From: Gekko japonicus
Lineage: Eukaryota
Length of the DNA: 64,000 nucleotides
Assembly: GCF_001447785.1 (NCBI RefSeq)
Contig: NW_015173679.1
Location: forward strand, 962,205 to 1,026,204
Reading direction: 5' to 3'
How positions within the stretch are numbered: position 1 is the stretch's first letter; the number at the start of each line of letters is the position of its first letter. A program made the translations under genes and the position numbers. Of the stretch, positions 6,601 through 61,048 are shown one piece after another. The notes beneath the pieces were generated by a model. That model was not told where the DNA came from and did not search any database. It was given only the letters and a program-made list of their open reading frames with translations.

Positions 6601-9600
6601 CCCTGCGAGGTAGGTCAGGCTTATCTAGTGAGTTCTATGGATGAACAGGAATTTGAAGCAGTGGCCCCGCAGTTGTTGTGTGACTTTACAACCACTGCAC
6701 CACACTGGCTGCATTGCCTAGGATTTTAGTAGGCAATGCAGCTTATAAGTACTTCGTATGTATCATATTGCCCATAAGGTCTGCTAAATGGCTAAATTTC
6801 TCTAGATGCATAAATGATAGAACATGTTAATTAAAATGTTACTCATTTTGTGCTTACAGATGTACTGATATCAACCCTGTGGCAGGTCTGTGCACAGTGG
6901 AGACAGCTATACGTAATAAGGTTGACATTCAACCCATAATTACTGATTTGGTGAGATTCAGATTATAACTGATCCATCTGATATGTCAGCCATTTTAGTG
7001 GGTTATTAAAGTTGTCTTATGATCACTGCAATTAAAAAGTTGCTGTTTCTGATAAATTTTAGCAAGCTCTTCAAGTTAGCTCAGATACTCTGCTTTTTCT
7101 AGTTAGTGATTTATTGTTGTCATAAACTCTTTCCTGACTTTCTTGTATATCCTGGGCCAGATTTAGTGGTGTTGGTAGCCTCTGGCTTTGGCAAGCAGTG
7201 GGGGCTGTCAGAAACAACAACTGTCACTTTGAGAAAGTCCCAGCAGGAGACCAAAAGAGCAGCAAAAAGGTTGTGCTAAACTTGGACAAAAGTTTATGCC
7301 ACAAGTAGTGTATAGTGTTGGTGTGACAGGAATGGGAAAGAGGCTGCTCTCTTGGCCCATGTTAGTTTTCTTTCCCATTGAAGAGACAGCCATTTGAATT
7401 GGGGCTTAGTATATTTTAATGGCAACTACTATACATCCTGTGTTAATGTCTAAGGGCTTATGAATTGTATTAACATTTTGTTTCACCTTGGGTAGAGTCC
7501 TACCACTCCGCTGGGCTTGGAACGACCATTGGTACTTACCCGTGAAGGGTCCTTCTCCTCTGAGGCTTGGAGGACATCTTGTGGGTGATTCCCATCCTTC
7601 TCTAGGGAGGCAGGACTAAGTTGAAACTTCTTCCTGTTTCCTTTGGAGGGAGTCACCCTAGCTCAGTTCGGTGCTCCGCAAGCAGTAAGCTACATAAAAA
7701 CTACACTTAGCAGAAATACAGTTAACAAGAACAGGAAGAATACCATAGAATTATGTAACTTGAACAGGAAAACAACCGAATCCATAAGAATAACATCTGT
7801 GTTCGGCTCTCTCTCTTTCCCGCNNNNNNNNNNNNNNNNNNNNNNNNNNNNNNNNNNNNNNNNNNNNNNNNNNNNNNNNNNNNNNNNNNNNNNNNNNNNN
7901 NNNNNNNNNNNNNNNNNNNNNNNNNNNNNNNNNNNNNNNNNNNNNNNNNNNNNNNNNNNNNNNNNNNNNNNNNNNNNNNNNNNNNNNNNNNNNNNNNNNN
8001 NNNNNNNNNNNNNNNNNNNNNNNNNNNNNNNNNNNNNNNNNNNNNNNNNNNNNNNNNNNNNNNNNNNNNNNNNNNNNNTCCCCTGTTTCAAAAATAGTAC
8101 ACCCCCCCCCCCCCCAAATCTGGAAGATGAGTTTTCTGTATTTGGGCTACACATGAGAAATTTTGACTCCCATTACATTTCATGTAATGAGATTTATGTG
8201 TGTCATTTAATGCAAAATGGAATTTGTTAAGGAATAAAAGGCATCTTTCTTTTATTTTGCTTCAACTTATGTCTAGGTAACAGGATTGTTGCCACGACTT
8301 CTTGGGAAAGTTGATTTGCTGCTGTTTAACCCACCTTATGTGGTAACTCCTTCTGTTGAGGTGAGACCATGTATTTAAGGAAGGCATTCATTGCATACTA
8401 GATACCAGCTGTTACACACAACATATGCAGTATTTCACTGTAGTTATCTGAAAATTTTAGGGTTTTTTTAAAAAAATGTTTTTATTAGTTTCAAAGAAAG
8501 GTACTACAGAGAGAGAAAAAGAAAAACAAAATAAGAAACAGAATAGAAAAATCTAACAGAATGGATACTATACTCATACATCAGTTTTGGTTACATTGTA
8601 CTTATAGAATCTAAGTCTTCTATGCAGTTGTCTGTAATTGTTTCACCTTGGGTAGAGTCCTACCACTCCGCTGGGCTTGGAACATTTATCTGGCAGATTT
8701 ATTTATTTATTTGGATTCTATGATAGTCTCACCCATTTTATTTCAAAGTTTCCTTTGAGAGCCAGTTTGGTGTAGTGGTTAAGTGCGCGGACTCTAATCT
8801 GGGAGAACTGGGTTTGATTCCCCACTCCTCCACTTGCACCTGGCTGGATGACCTTGGGCAAGCCGTAGTTCTGATAAGAGCTGTTCTTGAAAAAGAGCAG
8901 TTTCTGTCAAGAGCTATCTCAGCCCCACCTACCTCACAGGGTGTCTGTTGTGGGGAGGGGAAGGGAAAGGAGTTTGTAAGCCACTCTGAGACTCCTTTGG
9001 GTAGTGAAGGGCGGGGTATAAATCCAATCTCCTCTTCTTGTTTTTCATGTAATTGTAAAGTTAGTTTATCCATTTCTGCTGCGTTATCTGAAAATGTTGG
9101 TGAAGGTCTATGGAGGTTTTAATATTTACCAATTCACCTTCAGTCTCATACCTATTTTTATATTTAATAAGGTAATTTGTGAGGAATTCTTATTCTTAAT
9201 ATTAGTTAAGAATGTGTTTTCTGACACCTGCATCCTTATCCTAAAGCATGCTTGCTCAGAAGTACAGTCCTCCGATCTATGGGGCTTGCTCTCGAATAAG
9301 TGTGCTGCTAATTAAGGAGGATCCCTGTAGTAGCTGGTGGCATGTAGGACCTGTTGGGGAGGATCTAGTAGTAAATTTCCACTAATGAATTATGTGTGTT
9401 GCTGTGTGTGATTCCCCCCCCCAACTCTTTTCCTCCTATTGCAGGATCCCCCCAACCCAGTTTAACCCACATGCTGTTCCATAGGGTCCCCTATCCACCA
9501 GGAACAGGAAAGCAAGGAAGTCTCATTCCACATACAGAACTCCATTTTGCCAGTAGAAATTACTGCTGCATCCAACCCACTATTTAGTAAATGTGCTTAG

Positions 9601-20944: not shown

Positions 20945-23900
20945 ATTTTTAAAAAGGATTATGGTCTTGGTACTGTCTGCCCCCTTACTAAAAGTTGCAA
21001 TCCCTGGATATAAACTTTTATCTAAGTGGTGAGGATCTGTGAAAAAGAAGAGTTTGAGACTGCAACTAATGTCACTATGAGCACTGAATAAACATAAACT
21101 TAGAGAATCTTCCTGAGGGATATTCTTACAAATGCGCAAGTTTGGTGTAGTGGTTAAGTGCGTGGGCTCTAATCTGGGAGAACCAGGTTTGATTCCCCAC
21201 TTGTACCTGGCTGGATGACCTTGGGCAAGTCATAGTTCTGGCACAGCTGTCCTTGAAAAAGAGCAGTTTCTGTCAGCGCTCTCTCAGCCCCACCTACCTC
21301 ACAGGGTGTCTGTTGTGGGGAGAGGAGGGGAAGGGAAAGGAGTTTGTAAGCCACTCTGAGACTCCCTTGGGTAGTGAAGGGCAGGGTATAAATACAATCT
21401 CTTCTCTTCTTCTTCTATGTAAGGAGTTTTCCAGTGGGAAATGGGAAGGGACTGAAAACAACAGGAGAAAAACTGGAGGGATAGGCAGAATGAAAGGATG
21501 CTGAAACCATGCAAAGAATATCTCTAATTTAGGATCATGCATTACCCTAGAAGCATTGGCTATAGCTTGCACTACATCTCTAGTTGTGCAGTTTCAGTTT
21601 TATTTAAATTAAACAGATAGAAATATATATTATTAAAATAAATGACCTGGCACTGTAGACAGTGTGTCATGGATTCCATACTATGTCAGTTAGCACACTT
21701 GTCTTTTGCCACAAACTTACTTGTGATTTTTACCATCAAAGGTAAAAGTAAACTATGAATGCCTTCAGAAAAGAACTCCTGCCATTCACTTATGAGGTTT
21801 GCTGGAAGTTTTTCAATGATTTCTGGAGTTAATGCCTGGAAGTAGGCACTCAAGGCAGTAGTCAAGTCACAGCTCACACAGGCAAACACTTGTACCAGTG
21901 CAATAAAAAAGACTGCCTGGCTTTCACTTGTGGTCTGAAAAGAAAGGCAGACACAGACTTCTGTTCTTTTTCCATCCTGTTAATACCCAACCACACAATT
22001 GTTACCTCTATCATGTTATACATTCTTTTAGTTTATCATCTCAATCAAGCTCTTTTTTTCTTTTATGACAAATAAAAGCAATTTCTGTCTTTGAGTATAC
22101 TCAAAAGTCTTTAAAGCTTAAGTAATGCCTTAATGATTCTCATTCTGTATTGTTATCATCATCATATATTCTAATAGCAAAGTCAGCCAGATCATTGGAT
22201 ATCTAAATTCAGTGACTAGAGCTGTGAAGGAGCAAGAGATATCTTTCTCCAAACCTGAAAAGGGCCCCATGTTTGCAGGAAAATGTGAAATTAAAAATTT
22301 TTGGGGGGAATTTTAAAACCTGAAAACAATAACAGGAGCATTTGTAGCTTTAAGCAACAGATTCCCTCAATGGCTGGCGCTAGGCAACCACAGTATTCCA
22401 GCCATGGTCTGTCAGTAAAAGAGAGAGACCTTTCCAGGCCTATTTTGGCCTTTGAGGGAGGACTTATTGGGGCCAGGAGATTTAGTGGTTGAGTCTTTGG
22501 AGGGCAGGGTTTGGAGAGTGAAGAGGCCTCAGTCAGATATCATACCATACAATCCACTCTCCAAAGCAGTCATTTTCTCCAGGGGGACAGATCTCTGTCA
22601 TCTGGAGCTCAGTTGTAATTCTGGGAGATCTCCAGGTTAAGAGCTTAAGACAGAGGAGCAGATAAAGGTAGGCTGCCTGATGTGCAGGAAGGAGATAGGG
22701 TTGCCAGCTCCAGGTTAAGAAATTCCTAGAGAATTGGGGGGTGGAGCCTGGGGGGGTTGAGGAGGAGAGGGACCTCAGAAGGGTATAATGCCATTGATTT
22801 CACCTTCCAAAGCAGCCATTTCTTTCCTGGGAACTAGGGTTGCCAACCTCCAGGTGGGGGTTGGTGATCACCCAGAATTATAACTTCTCTCCAGATGACA
22901 GAGATCAATTCCCCGGAGAAAATAGACTCTATGGCATTACATCCTGCTGAGGTTGCTTCCCTCCCCAAGCCTTGCCCTCTCAAGGCTCCATCCCCAGATC
23001 TCGAGGAATTTCCCAACCTGGAGCTGGCAACCCTAAGGGGGAACTGATCTCTGTAGTTGGGAGATGTGTTGTGATTCCAGGAGATCTCTAGGCCGTACCT
23101 GGAGGCTGACAACCCTACAAGGAAAGCAGGAAGTAGAAAAAGGGGAAAGGCTATGGGGCTCTCAGAAAAGGGAANNNNNNNNNNNNNNNNGAAATGAGAT
23201 GCCTTCCGCAAATCCTTGCATGTTCCTACTTGAATATTCTAATTGCCAATTCGGCCAAACCTGAGGATACTTAAATCCAGTGACTGCAGCTGCTAACGGA
23301 CAAGACGTGTATTTCTACAAACCTGAAAAATGCCCCAGGTTTGCAAAAAAATCTGAAATCTTAAAAAAAAAAAAAAAACTACCACCACCCATGGGGGGGG
23401 GAGAAAAAGAAAATGATAACACAAACACATGTAGCTTTATGAAACGGAAGCCCTCAATGGCTGTTGCTATAGGCAACCACAGCAATCTGCTCCCGGTTCT
23501 CTGCTGCTTTCAGATCTTCCTGAGATTCCTGAATATATCTGTGATTTTCTTTGGATTTTTCTTCCAGTTTTCCCAAGAAAACTCAGATACATTTGGAAGC
23601 CATCCCAGCCAGGTTATATTTTCAGCTCGGGTATATCTGAATGCACATCCTTAGTAGCTTTTAAAAATGGATGCCCTCAGTGGCTGTTGCTAGGCAACCA
23701 CAACAGGCTTGGCTTCTGTTAGAAAAAAGCCACAAGGGCCCTTTCTAGGGTTGTTTGAAGAAGGACTCATTGGGGCCAGACCCAACATGACTCACCAAGG
23801 CTTGGATACCTGCCTGTCTAATAGCGGGCACAAAAGTCAGAGGACTCGATCGGGGCGCCTCGTATACGGCAGTAGAGAGTGGCAGCCCGGAGAGGGACCC

Positions 23901-29900: not shown

Positions 29901-32900
29901 ACATCCACACACTGCACATATAGCTAATATGTGATTTTGTCCCTGCCACCTCTTTTGAGACTAGAATAACGCTTCTCTTTCTAGCATTAAATTCACAATG
30001 ACAATTCCTGCTTTGTCAATGAGCCAACAGCAGACAGAGGGCTGGACCCAGCCAGCTTTTTCATTCAGTATCAACCAGTCCCCCCCGCCCCCCATCCAAC
30101 TATAACGCCTATGCAACAAGACTTTTGTACATCCAGGTACCATGATCCCCAGCACAGCCCTTTTTTTGGCGGTGAATGAGGAACCCCTTCTTCCTCTTTC
30201 ATCATCAGAAAAGCTGGTTGGATCCATCCCACAATAAGACTCTCCAAGAAATCAGAGCATACTACCTTTCTGTTGTATTGAAAAGGGCTTTTATCTCACA
30301 GGATGAAATATTCTTTGTATTTATCATTTTAGCCAAAGTTAAGGTCCAAAGTCTTCCACTCTCTTTTGATCTATGAAAGAACAGAAGGGTATCCATGATA
30401 CACCTGATTTGTTTAGGAAATAAAAAGATGTTCATTTCCATGAAGAATTCACAAGACAATAATATTTTGAAGATAAGGAAAATTATATCCAAAGAGGCAG
30501 AATGACAGAACTTCTACTAGAAAGCAACAAAAGCACAGGAATTAGACTATGTACTTACCTTTTAAATAAGATTTGTAATAGACAGGGAATATTACTAAGA
30601 GCACATAATTTCTCAGATGAAATATTCATTACTTCGAGCTTCTGAAGAAATTCAAGAAGCAGGCACGGTGGGTTTGCTAGTTCTTCAATCCATTGTAATG
30701 CATAAAGCTGTTCTGCAACTAAAGAAAAAAGTCAACAACATAAAGCATTCCATAGTAAACATTTGAAAAGGAATGAAATGCCCAGATGAAAATAATAATA
30801 ATAATACTTTCAATTTATTAATCGCTTTCCCCAGTGGGCTCAAAGCGATGTACAGTTACACATTAGACAGTGGACTAACAATGTTCAAAGGGGATAAGGA
30901 GGACAACATATATTCATTTTTAATTGCACACGCTGTCACTGCACGGTGGAAATGTCTTCTGGCTTGGCTCAGTCATTTTCCGAACGGCTGCTTGTTGACC
31001 AGGCTTCAGGACCCGTATGTCACATCGCCACAATACCACCGCCTGGCCGGAGACATCCACTGCAGGGATTTTTGTAGCCGAGAAGTTCTTTCGCCTTTTT
31101 CCGACCACGACCAGGAAGTCCCGACCGTCAGCTAACACCCTCCCACAAGGGAGATTGGTGTGCCCACCCTCTCTAAGGAGTGGTTCCCATTTTATCTACT
31201 CGCTGAAGCTTTTGAATCGCTGGGTGGATGAGCTGGGGACAACAGGCTGGCTGCTCACACCAGCGCAGGGCTTGAACTAACACAGTTCGGATGTTAAGAC
31301 AGTGGGATGTTAACAGTCACTAAGGAAAACTGGCAGTAGGTTACTACTGTTATAAATGTTATAAATGCTGTGTTGGATCCACTGACTACCTTGCCCCCAA
31401 GCTAGATCTGGACTGGTCTGGACCCTATAGATCCATTCTACTAGTGATAGTGCTTTCCTTTGGTACGAGGAACCTTCCCCTGATGCAAAAGGGTCTTCCT
31501 CTCACAAAGGTGAAGAGTATCTCTGTAGCAGAACAGCTCTGTGGGATCCAATCCAATGACTCCCCTTTTGCTAAGTCCTCTTCTTTCAAAGCAAAGGCAA
31601 AACAAAAGCAGAATGGAACCAATGGATCAAACCATAATGCTTTAGTCTCTAGCAGGACTTAGTTCACCAAGATCTTTACAGATAGAATTCCAACTGAGAC
31701 CAGCTGACATTCCCTTTTTCCTAGTTTTAAATTCAGGGTACCATTCAATGGGCCACACTGGTCTGCTTGTTGTTCACATAAACATTCTTATGCATGCAAA
31801 GTCTTCCCCATTCAATTCAACTGAGGAGGCAGATTTGGGTACAGAAAGCTCATATCTGTGCTGCCAATGAGCAGAATGTGCATGAGAAAGTTCTGTGTGA
31901 GCAGAAAAATACCCACAGTGCTTTAAGTCAGTCAGAGCTTCAAGAAACAGCAAGCTATAGAAAGCACAACATAAAAGTGGATTATTTTATCTAAAATTAT
32001 GCTTACCAATTCATAACTTTTAAAATGTTGGAGGCAGGACTCAGGCAACGCAGCCAGAGGATAGGGAGATCTTCTGTGTGACAGATCAGGGAGCCAACTG
32101 ATTTGGGAGCGTGTGGAATGTCCAGGAGAGTCCATAATCAAAACACAATTATATATAAGGAGAGATTACATTCTAGAGAAATAAAAAATCAAGGCTTAAC
32201 TTCCCAGTTTATACACAAAGCACCTTTGCCGCATACACCAGCATTAGCAGTGGTAACATGCCTCTGAGCAGTTACAAAATAATCTTGCTCACTTTAAAAA
32301 ACACAATTATATATAAGGAGAGATTACATTCTAGAGAAATAAAAAATCAAGGCTTAACTTCCCAGTTTATACACAAAGCACCTTTGCCGCATACACCAGC
32401 ATTAGCAGTGGTAACATGCCTCTGAGCAGTTACAAAATAATCTTGCTCACTTTAATGAGATTACAATGTACGTAAGTATTTACAAGATCAGACCATGGTA
32501 CAATTCCTTTTGAAAATCACAGTCAACTTCATTACAACACATTAAGAGGGTAAAAGACCCACACCAAGTTGATTTGGGGCATTTACAATACTTTATATAT
32601 TTGCAATTTCCCCAGCTAAATAACTTCCTTCTTTCTGAAAAGATGCTTTTGCAACATAAACACAGGTATACATAAAGCACACAGAAAAGTGCATCTACTA
32701 GAAACAACTATAATACTATTGTTTATTTAAAAGTACTGATCACTATGGTTATATCTAAAACTTAATTACTACAAACATGTTAGTATTTACAAAAGAATCT
32801 GTAAATGATAAATAAGAGAGGTAGAGTTTGTAAGAAGGGTGGAGATTTTTTCACTTCCACTCAGACCCAAGCTTGGGGGTCTGCCCCATCTTTCTGCTAC

Positions 32901-35900
32901 TATAGCTGCCTGATATCTCTGTTTGTGCTATAAGAACTGACTCCTTCCAAACTCCTGAAGGCCTTCACTCCAAGGCTGTTGACAGTGTGTCTGCAAATTA
33001 GGATTCTTGGCTATATCTGCAGAGAATATTACTGCCATTATGAAAAGCCTATCTGAGTTGGGGAGGTAAGAAAAAATGCTGTCCCCAATTAGGTAAAGGT
33101 ATAGCAGTAGCCCTTGATGAAGCTGTTAATGTGGAGCACAGAAGACCAGAAAAGGAGGTGGGGGGCAGTCTCTCCTTCCACTGCAAAGGACAAGGATTTC
33201 TTAATGTGCAAGGCCTATAACCTTTGAGGTAACTACACACCTTTCTTCAGTAATGGAGAACATGTAAATGTTTATATTTGAAATAAATATCCTGTGCAAT
33301 ATACATGTTTGCACTCTCCATATTCAAGTTTTCATCTCTTGCATAGATTTTTAGTTCACAGCACAAATTTTCTTTGGTAATGTGAGGACACACTGCACTG
33401 TATAAGTCAACTCTGTACCTCAGTAGATAGGGAATCCTGCATCTTTTCCCATTCACATTTGCTTGGGGTCAGCCATTCAATGTAGTCTTTCAAAATATAA
33501 GCAGAAACTTCATCAGCTTCCAACAGTTCAGTTAGCAAATCACTGACTGCAGAAATCAAAACCTGCAGACTGACATGAAAGGAAACCAGCATTTTACATG
33601 AAGAATAAAGCACAATAGCAAAATCTGTAGCAGCCTAAGGAAACAAGTCATAAGACTATGTAGCTACCTTTTAACATCCATCACAGATGACTGAAGCTGG
33701 TTCTTCACCCAGAATGCAGATCTCTGCAGGAAGGTGCTCTCTTTATGCATACCACCAGGCTGATGCACAAGTGATGTTAACCCACACATCCAAGTGTGCT
33801 TCAGCTTATTTACAAGGAAATCTACATCAATAAAAGAAAACAGCACAGTGCTTTAACTGCTGGACTACACTGAGAGTAATGCAAATGTTAATCTCTCTAC
33901 CTCAGCGCTATGATTAAGAACTGACTTGCTTTTGAAACGATTTTATGCTGTCCTTATGTCACCCCCAGTGTTTATATATCTTCTAAAAATCTGAGGGAGA
34001 ATCCCATGAGTGGGGAATGAAGCCAGAGCACTCTGGAGCAAGCAGGATGATGACTAACCAGGCCTTCCTTCTCCTGCCTGCTGGAGGAGGTGGAAGACGT
34101 AATCCCACATATTGGGCAACCCCCCCACCAAAGAAGCATCAATCAGCAGGATGATGACTAACCAGGCCTTCCTTTTCCTGCCTGCTGGAGGAGGTGGAAG
34201 AAGTAATCCCACATACTGGGCATCCCCCCACCAAAGAAGCGTCAATAAGCAGCTGACCTGGCTAAATGGAAATGTACCTGACAAATATGTTGTAGCCTGG
34301 CTTTTTGCACACAACTGAAAGATGGTGAACAACAAATCTTCTGATGATGGCATCAACAAGCATCCTTTAACTGAGCTAAAGAAGTTAGAGGCTACATCAC
34401 AGATGAATGACACAGATGGCTCAGCATTTCCAGCTTCTGAAAGATCCTTCGCTTTAGAAAGAGCCGCTTGAAGTTTGTCAATTATCCTTTTGACATAAAC
34501 TTCACCAATCAAGGACTCTATTGATAGAAAAGGACAGAGTATGTTAAATTGCTCTGTGATCAGTAAAAGCGCGGCATATCCTGTGCTCTGAACGTTCCAC
34601 CACATTCGTTAACTAGACCTGAAACAATCATGGATACCTCTTTTCAGTGAATCCAATGAGGCTACATTCCACATATTAGAAACCCCGGTCTTGACTGCTT
34701 ATTTTGACATTATCTTAGGTCTGGCTTAACAGTGTCAGTGTCTCACACTTCCTACCAATGCCTTGAAGTTTGTCAATTATCCTTTTGACATAAACTTCAC
34801 CAATCAAGGACTCTATTGATAGAAAAGGACAGAGTATGTTAAATTGCTCTGTGATCAGTAAAAGCGCTGCATATCCTGTGCTCTAAACGTTCCACCACAT
34901 TAGTTAACTAGACCTGAAACGATCATGGATACCTCTTTTCAGTGAATCTAATGAGGCTACATTCCACATATTAGAAACCCCGGTCTTGACTGCTTATTTT
35001 GACATTATCTTAGGTCTGGCTTAACAGTGTCAGTGTCTCACACTTCCTACCAATGCCAGGCCTGTGATATTAACACATTTATTATTTCAAAGAAACCTGT
35101 ACATTTTAATTCTAATTCATGTTTTTAATGTAATTTATTTATTCTATGTAATTTCAGGTTTTTATGTAAGCCATCCTAAGCGGTCCTCGTATTCATTTGG
35201 AAACAGGTGACCCTTAAATACATTCTGTTACATACACACACACACACGTAAATAAAATACTAAGCTCATTTTGGTCAGGCTAACTATGATCAAAAGATGG
35301 ACCCAGTTACTTGCATTGTAGCAGTAGTGAGAGATTTATTTATTCATTAATACACTGCCCTTCTCCCCATTAGGGATCCAAAGCAGCTCACACCATTCTT
35401 ATCTCCTCCATTTTATCCTCACAACAGCCCTTTGAGGTAGGTTAGGCTAAAAGGGTGTGACTGGCCCCAGGGTAAGCTGGCAAGCTTCCATGGCAGAGCA
35501 GAGATTCATACTATACCATACTGGCTCTTCCTCTGAAGAAAAGGCATCTTTGCTCACCCTTCAGTTGAGAGTGTCATGATGTATTCTTGCAACCAAGAAT
35601 TTTTTCAGGGCTCACAGGCACCTTTTTGGCCTAGGGACTGCCACAGAACACAAGCAAGCAGAAACATTCGCTTTTCTCTTGTGAATCTAGAGCCCCCCAA
35701 ATGTATCTCAGAAACTGAATAGGAAGGGAAACAGCCCTGAACCAGTGTCCTGTGTAGGCTTGCTTGCCCCATCAGATCTCCTCTGAAGCAGAGCATTCAG
35801 GTCCAGACAGTGAGGCTTGGGAGCATTGATACATGCAGGCAGCCGGGAGCTGGAACAGAAGGGAAGGAACTGGATGCTAGAACAGGAACCGGAAGCAAGA

Positions 35901-38900
35901 AGCTGGCACACAGGCTTGTGCCTAGGGGACTGGCTGATCCATCAAGGCAGCTTTCCCCTGCCTTGGCTGAAATAGGGTGGGATGTTATCAGGCTCAGCTG
36001 CCCTGCTGGCAGGTGTTGAGCTCCTGCAGCTGCACTGTGCATGGGCCAAGATCCTGCAAAAAAATTATTGTCCCCACTGTTTGGCTCTGGGATGGGGTTG
36101 CATGCAGCCAGTCGAGCACTTTGCCCCCACTTTGGGGCCACCTCGGTCTGGGCCTTCTGCCACCACCATTCCTGCAGAGTGAGAGCATCTTGCCCAGCAG
36201 AAGCCTGGTGGCTATTTCCAGGGCCAGTGGTGAGGCCTCCCTTGCAAACTCTGGCAAGATAGCTTCTGGTGCTGCAGGAGCCCTGTCAGGCCTCCATCAT
36301 GATAGGCTCTCCCTGGTCCTGCTTGTCCTCCTCAGCTGGTGGTCTTGGCTCCTCGGGCTCTTCCTCTTCCTCTGAGTCGCTGAGCTGGTTGGCGGGGGCC
36401 ACCATGGCAGTCAGGATTGCTTCCCTCCTTTAATAGTTCCCTTCCCATTCAGCTCCAGAGACTGCCCCAGGTTTTCTCCCTTCCCTTATTGTGGTGCAAG
36501 CAAAGCAGCCATTTTCATTTTGTGGCTGCCAGCTGTATACAGAAAAAAAGGTGGGAGATGGACCATATCTTCCTTCAAATGGATATTTTAGTGGGTAACT
36601 TACTAAACAGCTTAAATTCTAGTGTTAAGAGATCTGCCTTTTGGCAGTACTGTTAGAAGCCATCCAGGTTATTAGATTCAGATACTGGCTTGGCAACAAA
36701 CCTCAAATTGCAAAGATTTGCAACAGAGAAAATTCAGATGACACGACCTGTCTTAAAAGGGGGCATGATCACTACATAACAATTGTCTCTGTCTAGCAAT
36801 AAGCTTAAAAATCCAGAATGTAATCCATTCTGATCAGTGGGGCTTGAGCACACATTTTTCTAGACCAAACTTTTTATTTATTTATTTTTAAATAATGAAA
36901 ATAAAAAAGGAATCTTGTAGCACCTTAAATTTAGGCTTCAGTAAATTTGCTAGTCTTTAAGATACCAAAGAGCAGGGGTCATGTCATAGAAAAAGAGCTG
37001 CAGGAGCTCATTAGCATATGGTATGCTAATGAGCTACTAGGCTATTAGCATAAGAGCTCATTAGCATATGCAACGCCCCCTGACAACACCGGAAGTGGTG
37101 AAATAAAATACTAAGCTCATTTTGGTCAGTCTATGATCAAAAGATGGACCCATTGTAGCAGTAGTGAGAGATTTATTTATTCATTAATACACTGCCCTTC
37201 TCCCCATTAGGGATCCAAAGCAGCTCACACCATTCTTATCTCCTCCATTTTATCCTCACAACAGCCCTTTGAGGTAGGTTAGGCTAAAAGGGTGTGACTG
37301 GCCCCAGGGTAAGCTGGCAAGCTTCCATGGCAGAGCAGAGATTCATACTATACCATACTGGCTCTTCCTCTGAAGAAAAGGCATCTTTGCTCACCCTTCA
37401 GTTGAGAGTGTCATGATGTATTCTTGCAACCAAGAATTTTTTCAGGGCTCACAGGCACCTTTTTGGCCTAGGGACTGCCACAGAACACAAGCAAGCAGAA
37501 ACATTCGCTTTTCTCTTGTGAATCTAGAGCCCCCCAAATGTATCTCTGCTCCGGCCCGCTCTGGCCCCAAAAGACTCCTGCCAAAGAGTACTTTTTTTTC
37601 CTTCAACAAACTAACACAGTGCCACACTAGAAAAATGTTGGGCAGACTCGGAAATAGGACCATCCTTTGGGAAACAGCCCTGAACCAGTGTCCTGTGCTC
37701 TGTAGGCTTGCCCCATCAGATCTCCTCTGAAGCAGAGCATTCAGGTCCAGACAGTGAGGCTTGGGAGCATTGATACATATCAATAGAAAGACAATAACAT
37801 AGTCCAACAATAATATATTTAATGGTCCTTTTTGCCTTAGACTAACTGCAATTTTCAAAATAGACCCAGGAATCCCATGACACATATGGAGAAGCTGTAT
37901 ACACTAAGTTACATGTTTCTCCTCCATCTAGCTCCAGAATACCTTCAATACACACAGCTAAAGCAACACAATTTTATAAATGTGGGCTTTTGCACTTGTG
38001 TAAAACAAATAAGAAAACTTGCAATAGAACATATGTTAAGAGATTACCAAGCTGAATGCATGACATACCAGTCAACTGACAGGTCAAACACTGTCAATTG
38101 TCAATCAACTATTTGTTATTTGACTATAGTCACACATACAGGAGGTGGCGGATTTTACTGCTCTGTGACAGCCTTTCACACCATCTGGGGTACTGTTCCA
38201 GAAGGCTCCTGACCATCATGGAGGATGGGACCATCATGGGGGAAGCAGACGCCAAGTGTGACTGGAAGCAATTATTCCGGACTCAAACCAATATGTACCA
38301 AGTAAGAACAAAAAAGCTGACAATACCTTTTGAATTATTTGAAGGAGAATCTTCCACTTCAGATCCATCTAAAACCAGAGAAAGTTGAAATATTATGTAA
38401 CGTGGGGAGCCCTGCTCATTTCCTAGAGTGGCTTTGTTTAGGGACCTCTGTCACATAGACGTTCACATACATATGACCTCCAATCAGCACTCACCCCCAC
38501 AAATTCATAAGTAAATATACTGCAAGAGAAGCACAGCCACCCTTTTCTTAGCTTAGCTTCATAATTCTTCATGAGCCAACTGAGCCTCAGCAAACTGATG
38601 CTAGCTGGGGAAAGAGATTTGGACTCTTATTTATTTACCTCTATATTCTGGCCAGGAAATAAAACGCTGATGAGATTGCATTATGGACAGCTTCCCAGTT
38701 TATGAAGGTATGCTAAATGACTGGAATATTCTTTTGCTTAAAAAGTCGTCATCAGTAAGTTTGCAGAGGTGCCCCATATTAATTTGGGCACATACGCAGC
38801 ATTTCATGGCATACAGTGGATAGCTAGGGTGAGCTACTGTAAGAAATTTTTAAAACTAGTTAAAATCTAGTTTCAGGATTGCAGTAACGCTGCTCATTTT

Positions 38901-57123: not shown

Positions 57124-59293
<2,170 letters not shown>

Positions 59294-60546: not shown

Positions 60547-61048
60547 CTTGACAGCATAATAAAAAGTAGAGACATCACCCTGCCAACAAAAGTCTGTATG
60601 GTCAAAGCAGTGGTATTCCCAGTAGTACTGCATAACTGCGAGAGTTGGACTTTAAGGAAGGCTGAGCGCCAAATAATTGATTCTTTTGACTTATGGTGCT
60701 GGAGAAGACTCTTGAGAGTCCCCTGGACTGCAAGATCAAATCAGTCAATCCTAAAAGAAATCAACCCTGACTGTTCTCTGGAAGGCCAGATACTGAAGCT
60801 GAAGCTCAAATACTTTGGCCACCAAATGAGAAGGGAGAACTCATTGGAGAAGACCCTGATGCTGGGAAAGATTGAAGGTCAAAGAAGAAGGGGACAGCAA
60901 AGGATGAAACGGTTAGACAGTGTTATCGAGGCAACAAACATGAAATTAAGCAAATTCCAGAGCACGACAGAAGACAGGAGGGCCTGGCGTGATGTGATCC
61001 ATGGGGTCGCGAAGAGTTGGACTCGACTGTGCGACTGAACAATGACTA
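60547..61048 (+). mobile_element. 5'-truncated RTE-BovB LINE
   Basis: Same BovB 3' protein segment as the copy at 228-1044; degenerate TSD caagtctttcct / caagccttccct. Confidence 0.92.

Follow-up and report, generated by a model that had tools for sequence, protein, structure and literature searches.

Has Gekko japonicus lost exon 16 of LTN1, the gene encoding listerin, or is the exon missing from the assembled scaffold while the gene itself is whole? The loss or skipping of an exon can be rescued by a cryptic 3' splice site, and a rescue of this kind had been proposed for the 64-kb stretch of DNA analysed here (hereafter the window). The headline of a first-pass annotation was a real exon loss, with a compensatory acceptor and a shortened HEAT-repeat arm; as a fallback it held mis-assembly to be the more probable explanation.

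LTN1 and the intron between exons 15 and 17

LTN1 occupies positions 53139-12785 of the window, on the minus strand. Its exon 10 is 100% identical to P0001, a listerin record whose source name is Gekko japonicus, and 96% identical to P0002 (Gekko kuhli); the human listerin chain 3J92_w also matches this exon (E 5.5e-65). A Pfam scan of P0001 and P0002 returned Ltn1_1st, the LTN1 HEAT regions, a UBC-like domain and a RING domain, and so the N-terminal domain, the HEAT-repeat arm, the RWD/UBC-like domain and the C-terminal RING of a listerin orthologue were all found. Mapping of P0002 placed 28 LTN1 exons in the window with a total of exactly 4894 nt, the figure given in the first-pass annotation. 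The frame of exons 1-11 is free of stops, exons 13-30 except 16 show 97.6% identity to P0002, and all 51 of 51 amino acids of exon 15 are identical. By tblastn, two segments of P0002, aa 712-775 (exon 12) and aa 958-1024 (exon 16), had no credible match in the window. Elsewhere in the window, an exon-like ORF at 58101-58607 (minus strand) belongs to the upstream neighbour of LTN1, which by its motif may be RWDD2B, and two fragments with reverse-transcriptase-like ORFs, at 544-1038 and 60551-61042, are 90.5% identical and presumably represent a RTE/BovB-type LINE.

The features around the missing exon are the following.

33419..33569, minus strand: LTN1 exon 15, 151 nt, phase-0 end, donor GTACAG
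30719..33418, minus strand: apparent single intron of 2700 nt (GT..AG), the 5' part of intron 15 fused with the 3' part of intron 16
30559..30718, minus strand: LTN1 exon 17, 160 nt, phase-1 start, preceded by the canonical acceptor ttttttctttag
30713..30714, minus strand: nearer exonic AG at +6; a splice from exon 15 would be frameshifted and meet a stop after 11 codons
30708..30709, minus strand: AG at +11 within exon 17, part of the codon for the Gln of AEQLY, in frame with exon 15, candidate cryptic acceptor

What had been read from the letters of this intron was largely corroborated. Exon 15 does end in phase 0 and exon 17 does start in phase 1. A diverged exon 16, sought in the 2700-nt intron by six-frame reading and tblastn, gave nothing, so that its reported absence from 30719..33418 holds for the window. 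There are exactly four AG|TGG sites in the intron (33180, 32859, 31381 and 31059), as had been counted, and none of the four opens the exon-16 peptide; the version of this peptide given in the first-pass annotation is itself matched by the mammalian records P0095 and P0104. Exon 15 spliced straight to the canonical acceptor of exon 17 meets a stop after 13 codons. Spliced instead to the AG whose last base is 30708, it reads on in an open frame that is 71 aa short, and the in-frame AG described 11 nt inside exon 17 is thus real.

Exon 16 on a small contig of the same assembly

The assembly does contain the exon, in another place, and the exon is therefore not absent from the genome. The exon-16 peptide of P0002 had four matches in the assembly; one, at G000:C75501:216-413, is stop-free and covers 66/66 aa at 91% (E 2.2e-33), and the other three have E 0.58 or worse. 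This contig is tied to the LTN1 locus by a shared end.

G000:C75501 (L002), 691 bp: exon 16 at 216-417
31815..32025, minus strand, of the window: anchor, 211/211 identical to positions 481-691 of that contig

On C75501, exon 16 is 202 nt long and lies between a pyrimidine-rich cctag and gtaagt, with AG..GT intact. Its phases, 0 at the start and 1 at the end, fit exons 15 and 17 exactly. Once it is restored, exons 13-30 read through 986 codons with 0 internal stops, and the junction peptides are as in relatives. The whole restored LTN1, made of the 28 exons of the window, the 202-nt exon 16 and an exon 12 of 193 nt by P0002, comes to 5289 nt, or 1762 aa plus the stop, against 1763 aa in P0002. 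The frame of about 1760 aa is continuous and includes the exon-16 segment; the ~193-nt exon 12 is assembled for 163 nt.

The 211-nt anchor was found in only two places in the assembly, the window and C75501, and positions 1-480 of the contig were found once. The anchor begins 63 nt past the exon-16 donor, which gives a true intron 16 of 1370 nt. These intron flanks, together with a unique anchor in the LTN1 intron, led us to reject C75501 as a paralogue or a processed pseudogene. Exon 16 is the least identical to P0002 of the 18 exons compared (61/67, versus 97.6% for the others). Compared with the outgroups P0122, P0004, P0007 and P0009, it shares 55, 57, 50 and 50 of 67 residues, and the corresponding fractions for P0002's own exon 16 are 0.78, 0.84, 0.73 and 0.69; the two exons are equally close to the outgroups, and nothing suggests decay. 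No same-species full-length record identical to the exon on C75501 was found among the 19 matches in 48 longer proteins, the best of which was P0002 at 91%, nor did a protein cluster look-up return a same-species full-length listerin record.

The junction in the intron and the surroundings of exon 12

The place where the scaffold departs from the contig carries further structure.

32140..32455, minus strand: two identical 158-nt copies (158/158) in head-to-tail order, both ending 27 nt into a dispersed repeat
32026..32166, minus strand: first ~141 nt of this high-copy dispersed repeat (2726 candidates, 40 scored), cut at the junction
32025..32026, minus strand: junction from repeat to intron 16 in a T/A-rich stretch, with 480 nt or more missing, exon 16 among them

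The repeat begins at 32324 and at 32166 on the minus strand, once per 158-nt copy, and the duplication ends 114 nt from the junction, at the entry to the repeat. The T/A-rich stretch at the junction is imperfectly common to the repeat and to intron 16, and the two sides are joined without any N. All seven other repeat copies examined run beyond the cut point, four of them over about 1.2 kb. Truncated copies do exist, one of them (L010) stopping near 230 nt, so the short copy at 32026-32166 is by itself no proof of a false join. In the assembly, no contig was found that joins the 5' end of C75501 to the repeat, nor one that carries the LTN1 copy of the repeat with its continuation (six matches, the only exact one being the window). 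The repeat itself (window 32026-32166; L008-L014) is unclassified, with copies 87-96% alike and a sharp common end; within L008-L014 a stretch of about 290 nt is directly repeated, and 4/7 copies reach ~1.2 kb.

A like pattern was found at exon 12.

G000:C146102:1-268 (L006), 268 bp: LTN1 exon 12 in part (intact acceptor, 163 nt from the exon start, open frame)
35190..35245, minus strand, of the window: anchor of this contig, identical at 55 of 56 positions, in part a run of GT

A search of the assembly recovered neither the remaining ~30 nt of exon 12 nor the donor, C146102 being the only contig that fitted the pattern. Several blocks of the window resemble false duplications. A 295-nt tandem duplication at 34467-35057 (98.3%, 5 differences) repeats the exon-13 acceptor and the first ~55 nt of the exon, and looks like two haplotypes placed end to end. 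Intron 11/12 holds two copies of a stretch of about 460 nt, at 35250-35709 and 37101-37546 (96.7%), likely a false duplication beside the exon-12 break, and a further 110-nt pair lies at 35726-35834 and 37669-37778. Directly past the exon-13 donor there is also a 104-nt tandem repeat (34040-34252, 2.1 copies, 92%). The assembly consists of 191,500 contigs, and the window holds two runs of N, at 7824-8078 (255 nt) and 23175-23190 (16 nt, within an LTN1 intron). P0001, a PREDICTED protein of 1660 aa, is without exons 12 and 16 and has the exon-13 start twice, translating both copies of the 295-nt duplication. It shows the same errors as the scaffold and therefore lends no independent support to an exon loss.

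An intact exon on a contig that overlaps the intron exactly makes an assembly error, and not a shortened protein, the most likely source of the gap. With the unique 211-nt anchor, the junction inside a repeat, the adjoining 158-nt duplication and the like pattern at exon 12, we regard the missing exon 16 as very probably a mis-join in a fragmented draft assembly, the fallback that the first-pass annotation had preferred and that the anchored orphan contig supports. From what is generally known of gap filling, the steps would be a break, a fill from two sides and a closure. The contig would have broken where it ran into the dispersed repeat of intron 15; the fill from the left would have read the 158-nt end a second time and then the start of the repeat, while the fill from the right would have extended intron 16 backward to 63 nt short of the exon-16 donor. 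The gap would then have closed on the short T/A-rich likeness and left the exon-16 piece unplaced. The animal itself would make an ordinary full-length listerin of about 1762 aa from 30 exons. Several points weigh on the other side: real deletions too leave short likeness at repeats, the join is gap-free, no contig was found to link C75501 back to the repeat, exon 16 is the exon least identical to P0002, and truncated repeat copies exist.

The acceptor inside exon 17, competing explanations and known systems

We compared 126 listerin proteins, 120 of which span both flanks of the exon-16 segment; the six left out as partial and not across both flanks are P0028, P0032, P0061, P0070, P0105 and P0109. 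The segment is kept in 117 of the 120, including all other geckos, and the exceptions are P0001 and the camel records P0102 and P0103. The third residue of AEQLY is Q in 27 of the 120 records (isoforms included, so that species are fewer), all of them lepidosaurs by source names, from geckos to tuatara. At the protein level 26 of these 27, tuatara included, keep exon 16, and the residue is thus not special to a lineage that lost the exon. In these alignments the Q is the usual lepidosaur residue and not a compensatory one, so its proposed role as a special rescue is not borne out.

Scored with a crude matrix built from 26 window acceptors, the AG at +11 reaches 7.2, the canonical exon-17 site 6.2 and the AG at +6 13.0; by this crude measure the +11 site ranks among the best 4.1% of the 2414 AGs in introns. 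The matrix did not disfavour it, and we do not describe it as a weak site. Its score borrows the canonical pyrimidine tract, past which it is the third AG. An early AG (in the first 15 nt) occurs in 19 of 27 window exons, so that an exonic AG near an acceptor is common.

An intact gene could still give rise to a minor transcript that skips exon 16 through the +11 AG and encodes a listerin 71 aa short, a reading that is compatible with mis-assembly. The open frame and the score of the +11 site speak for it, as do the camel records P0102 and P0103, which are without the segment in frame while their sister record P0104 keeps it. On the other hand, that score is borrowed from the canonical tract, the out-of-frame +6 AG scores more, early AGs are frequent among the window exons, and the segment is present in all other gecko records, several isoforms included. 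The camel records moreover have other residues at the join than the gecko, and may be automated patches. We consider such an isoform very unlikely, and it is not indicated by the data. It is extremely improbable that the species lost exons 12 and 16, evolved compensatory acceptors and makes only a short-arm listerin. The scaffold and the 1660-aa P0001 do lack both exons, but the assembly contains both, each with its acceptor intact and its frame open, the Q residue goes together with exon 16 in nearly all records that have it, and P0001 is a prediction carrying the doubled exon-13 start. C75501 largely refutes this species-level loss, and the real loss with a short HEAT arm that had been the headline is unsupported, exon 16 being both present and conserved.

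A further possibility is that the sequenced animal was heterozygous for a real exon-16 deletion between the repeat and intron 16, with the scaffold representing the deleted allele and C75501 the intact one. The gap-free junction with its short T/A-rich likeness would suit this, and the duplicated blocks at 98.3% and 96.7% resemble two haplotypes, so that the region seems heterozygous. The anchor, however, shows no difference over 211/211 positions, against 5/295 in the 295-nt pair that resembles two haplotypes; the chance of 0 differences in the anchor is 0.027 at 1.7% divergence and 0.35 at 0.5%. Against a deletion stands also the perfect 158-nt duplication, which stops where the repeat is entered, 114 nt from the join. 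Most of exon 12 is found on an orphan contig too, and a heterozygous deletion would therefore need a second, independent one, in a gene whose knockout in mice is embryonic lethal (PMC7641731). We judge this explanation very unlikely. Without use of the +11 AG, the deleted allele would frameshift and meet its stop after 13 codons. That such an allele segregates and avoids the frameshift through an old, normally silent +11 AG, giving a viable listerin whose HEAT arm lacks 71 aa, is highly improbable. If true, it would offer a natural test of the HEAT-arm length needed to span from NEMF to the exit tunnel of the ribosome, and a natural short-arm listerin in a gene with a lethal mouse knockout (PMC7641731). 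A literature search found no LTN1 exon-skipping variant in reptiles, and one on the lister allele found nothing.

Mis-assembly remains our preferred reading, and LTN1 of Gekko japonicus is most likely an ordinary gene in which the exon loss is not a real feature. The case is a caution that a gap-free false deletion also shapes a public protein record, P0001, and that such apparent losses are settled if the assembly's own small contigs are searched. Compared with the known listerin, the E3 ubiquitin ligase of ribosome-associated quality control, the gecko gene is alike in domains, length and exon-10 match; no biological difference was shown, and what differs is a scaffold without exons 12 and 16. 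It resembles rescue by a cryptic 3' splice site in having an in-frame exonic AG 11 nt inside exon 17, but here the exon is present and the AG-bearing residue is common to lepidosaurs. False losses affected some 26-60% of genes in vertebrate assemblies of an older generation; missing exons rank among the most frequent kinds, and fragmented genes are common too (PMC9516821). LTN1 is like the fragmented-gene type described there, with a missing exon on another scaffold of the same assembly, near repeats; the cases in that paper were checked by reads or a long-read assembly, whereas ours is drawn from the assembly sequence. Unlike that type, as it is described there (PMC9516821), the LTN1 gap was closed without N and so imitates a clean deletion.
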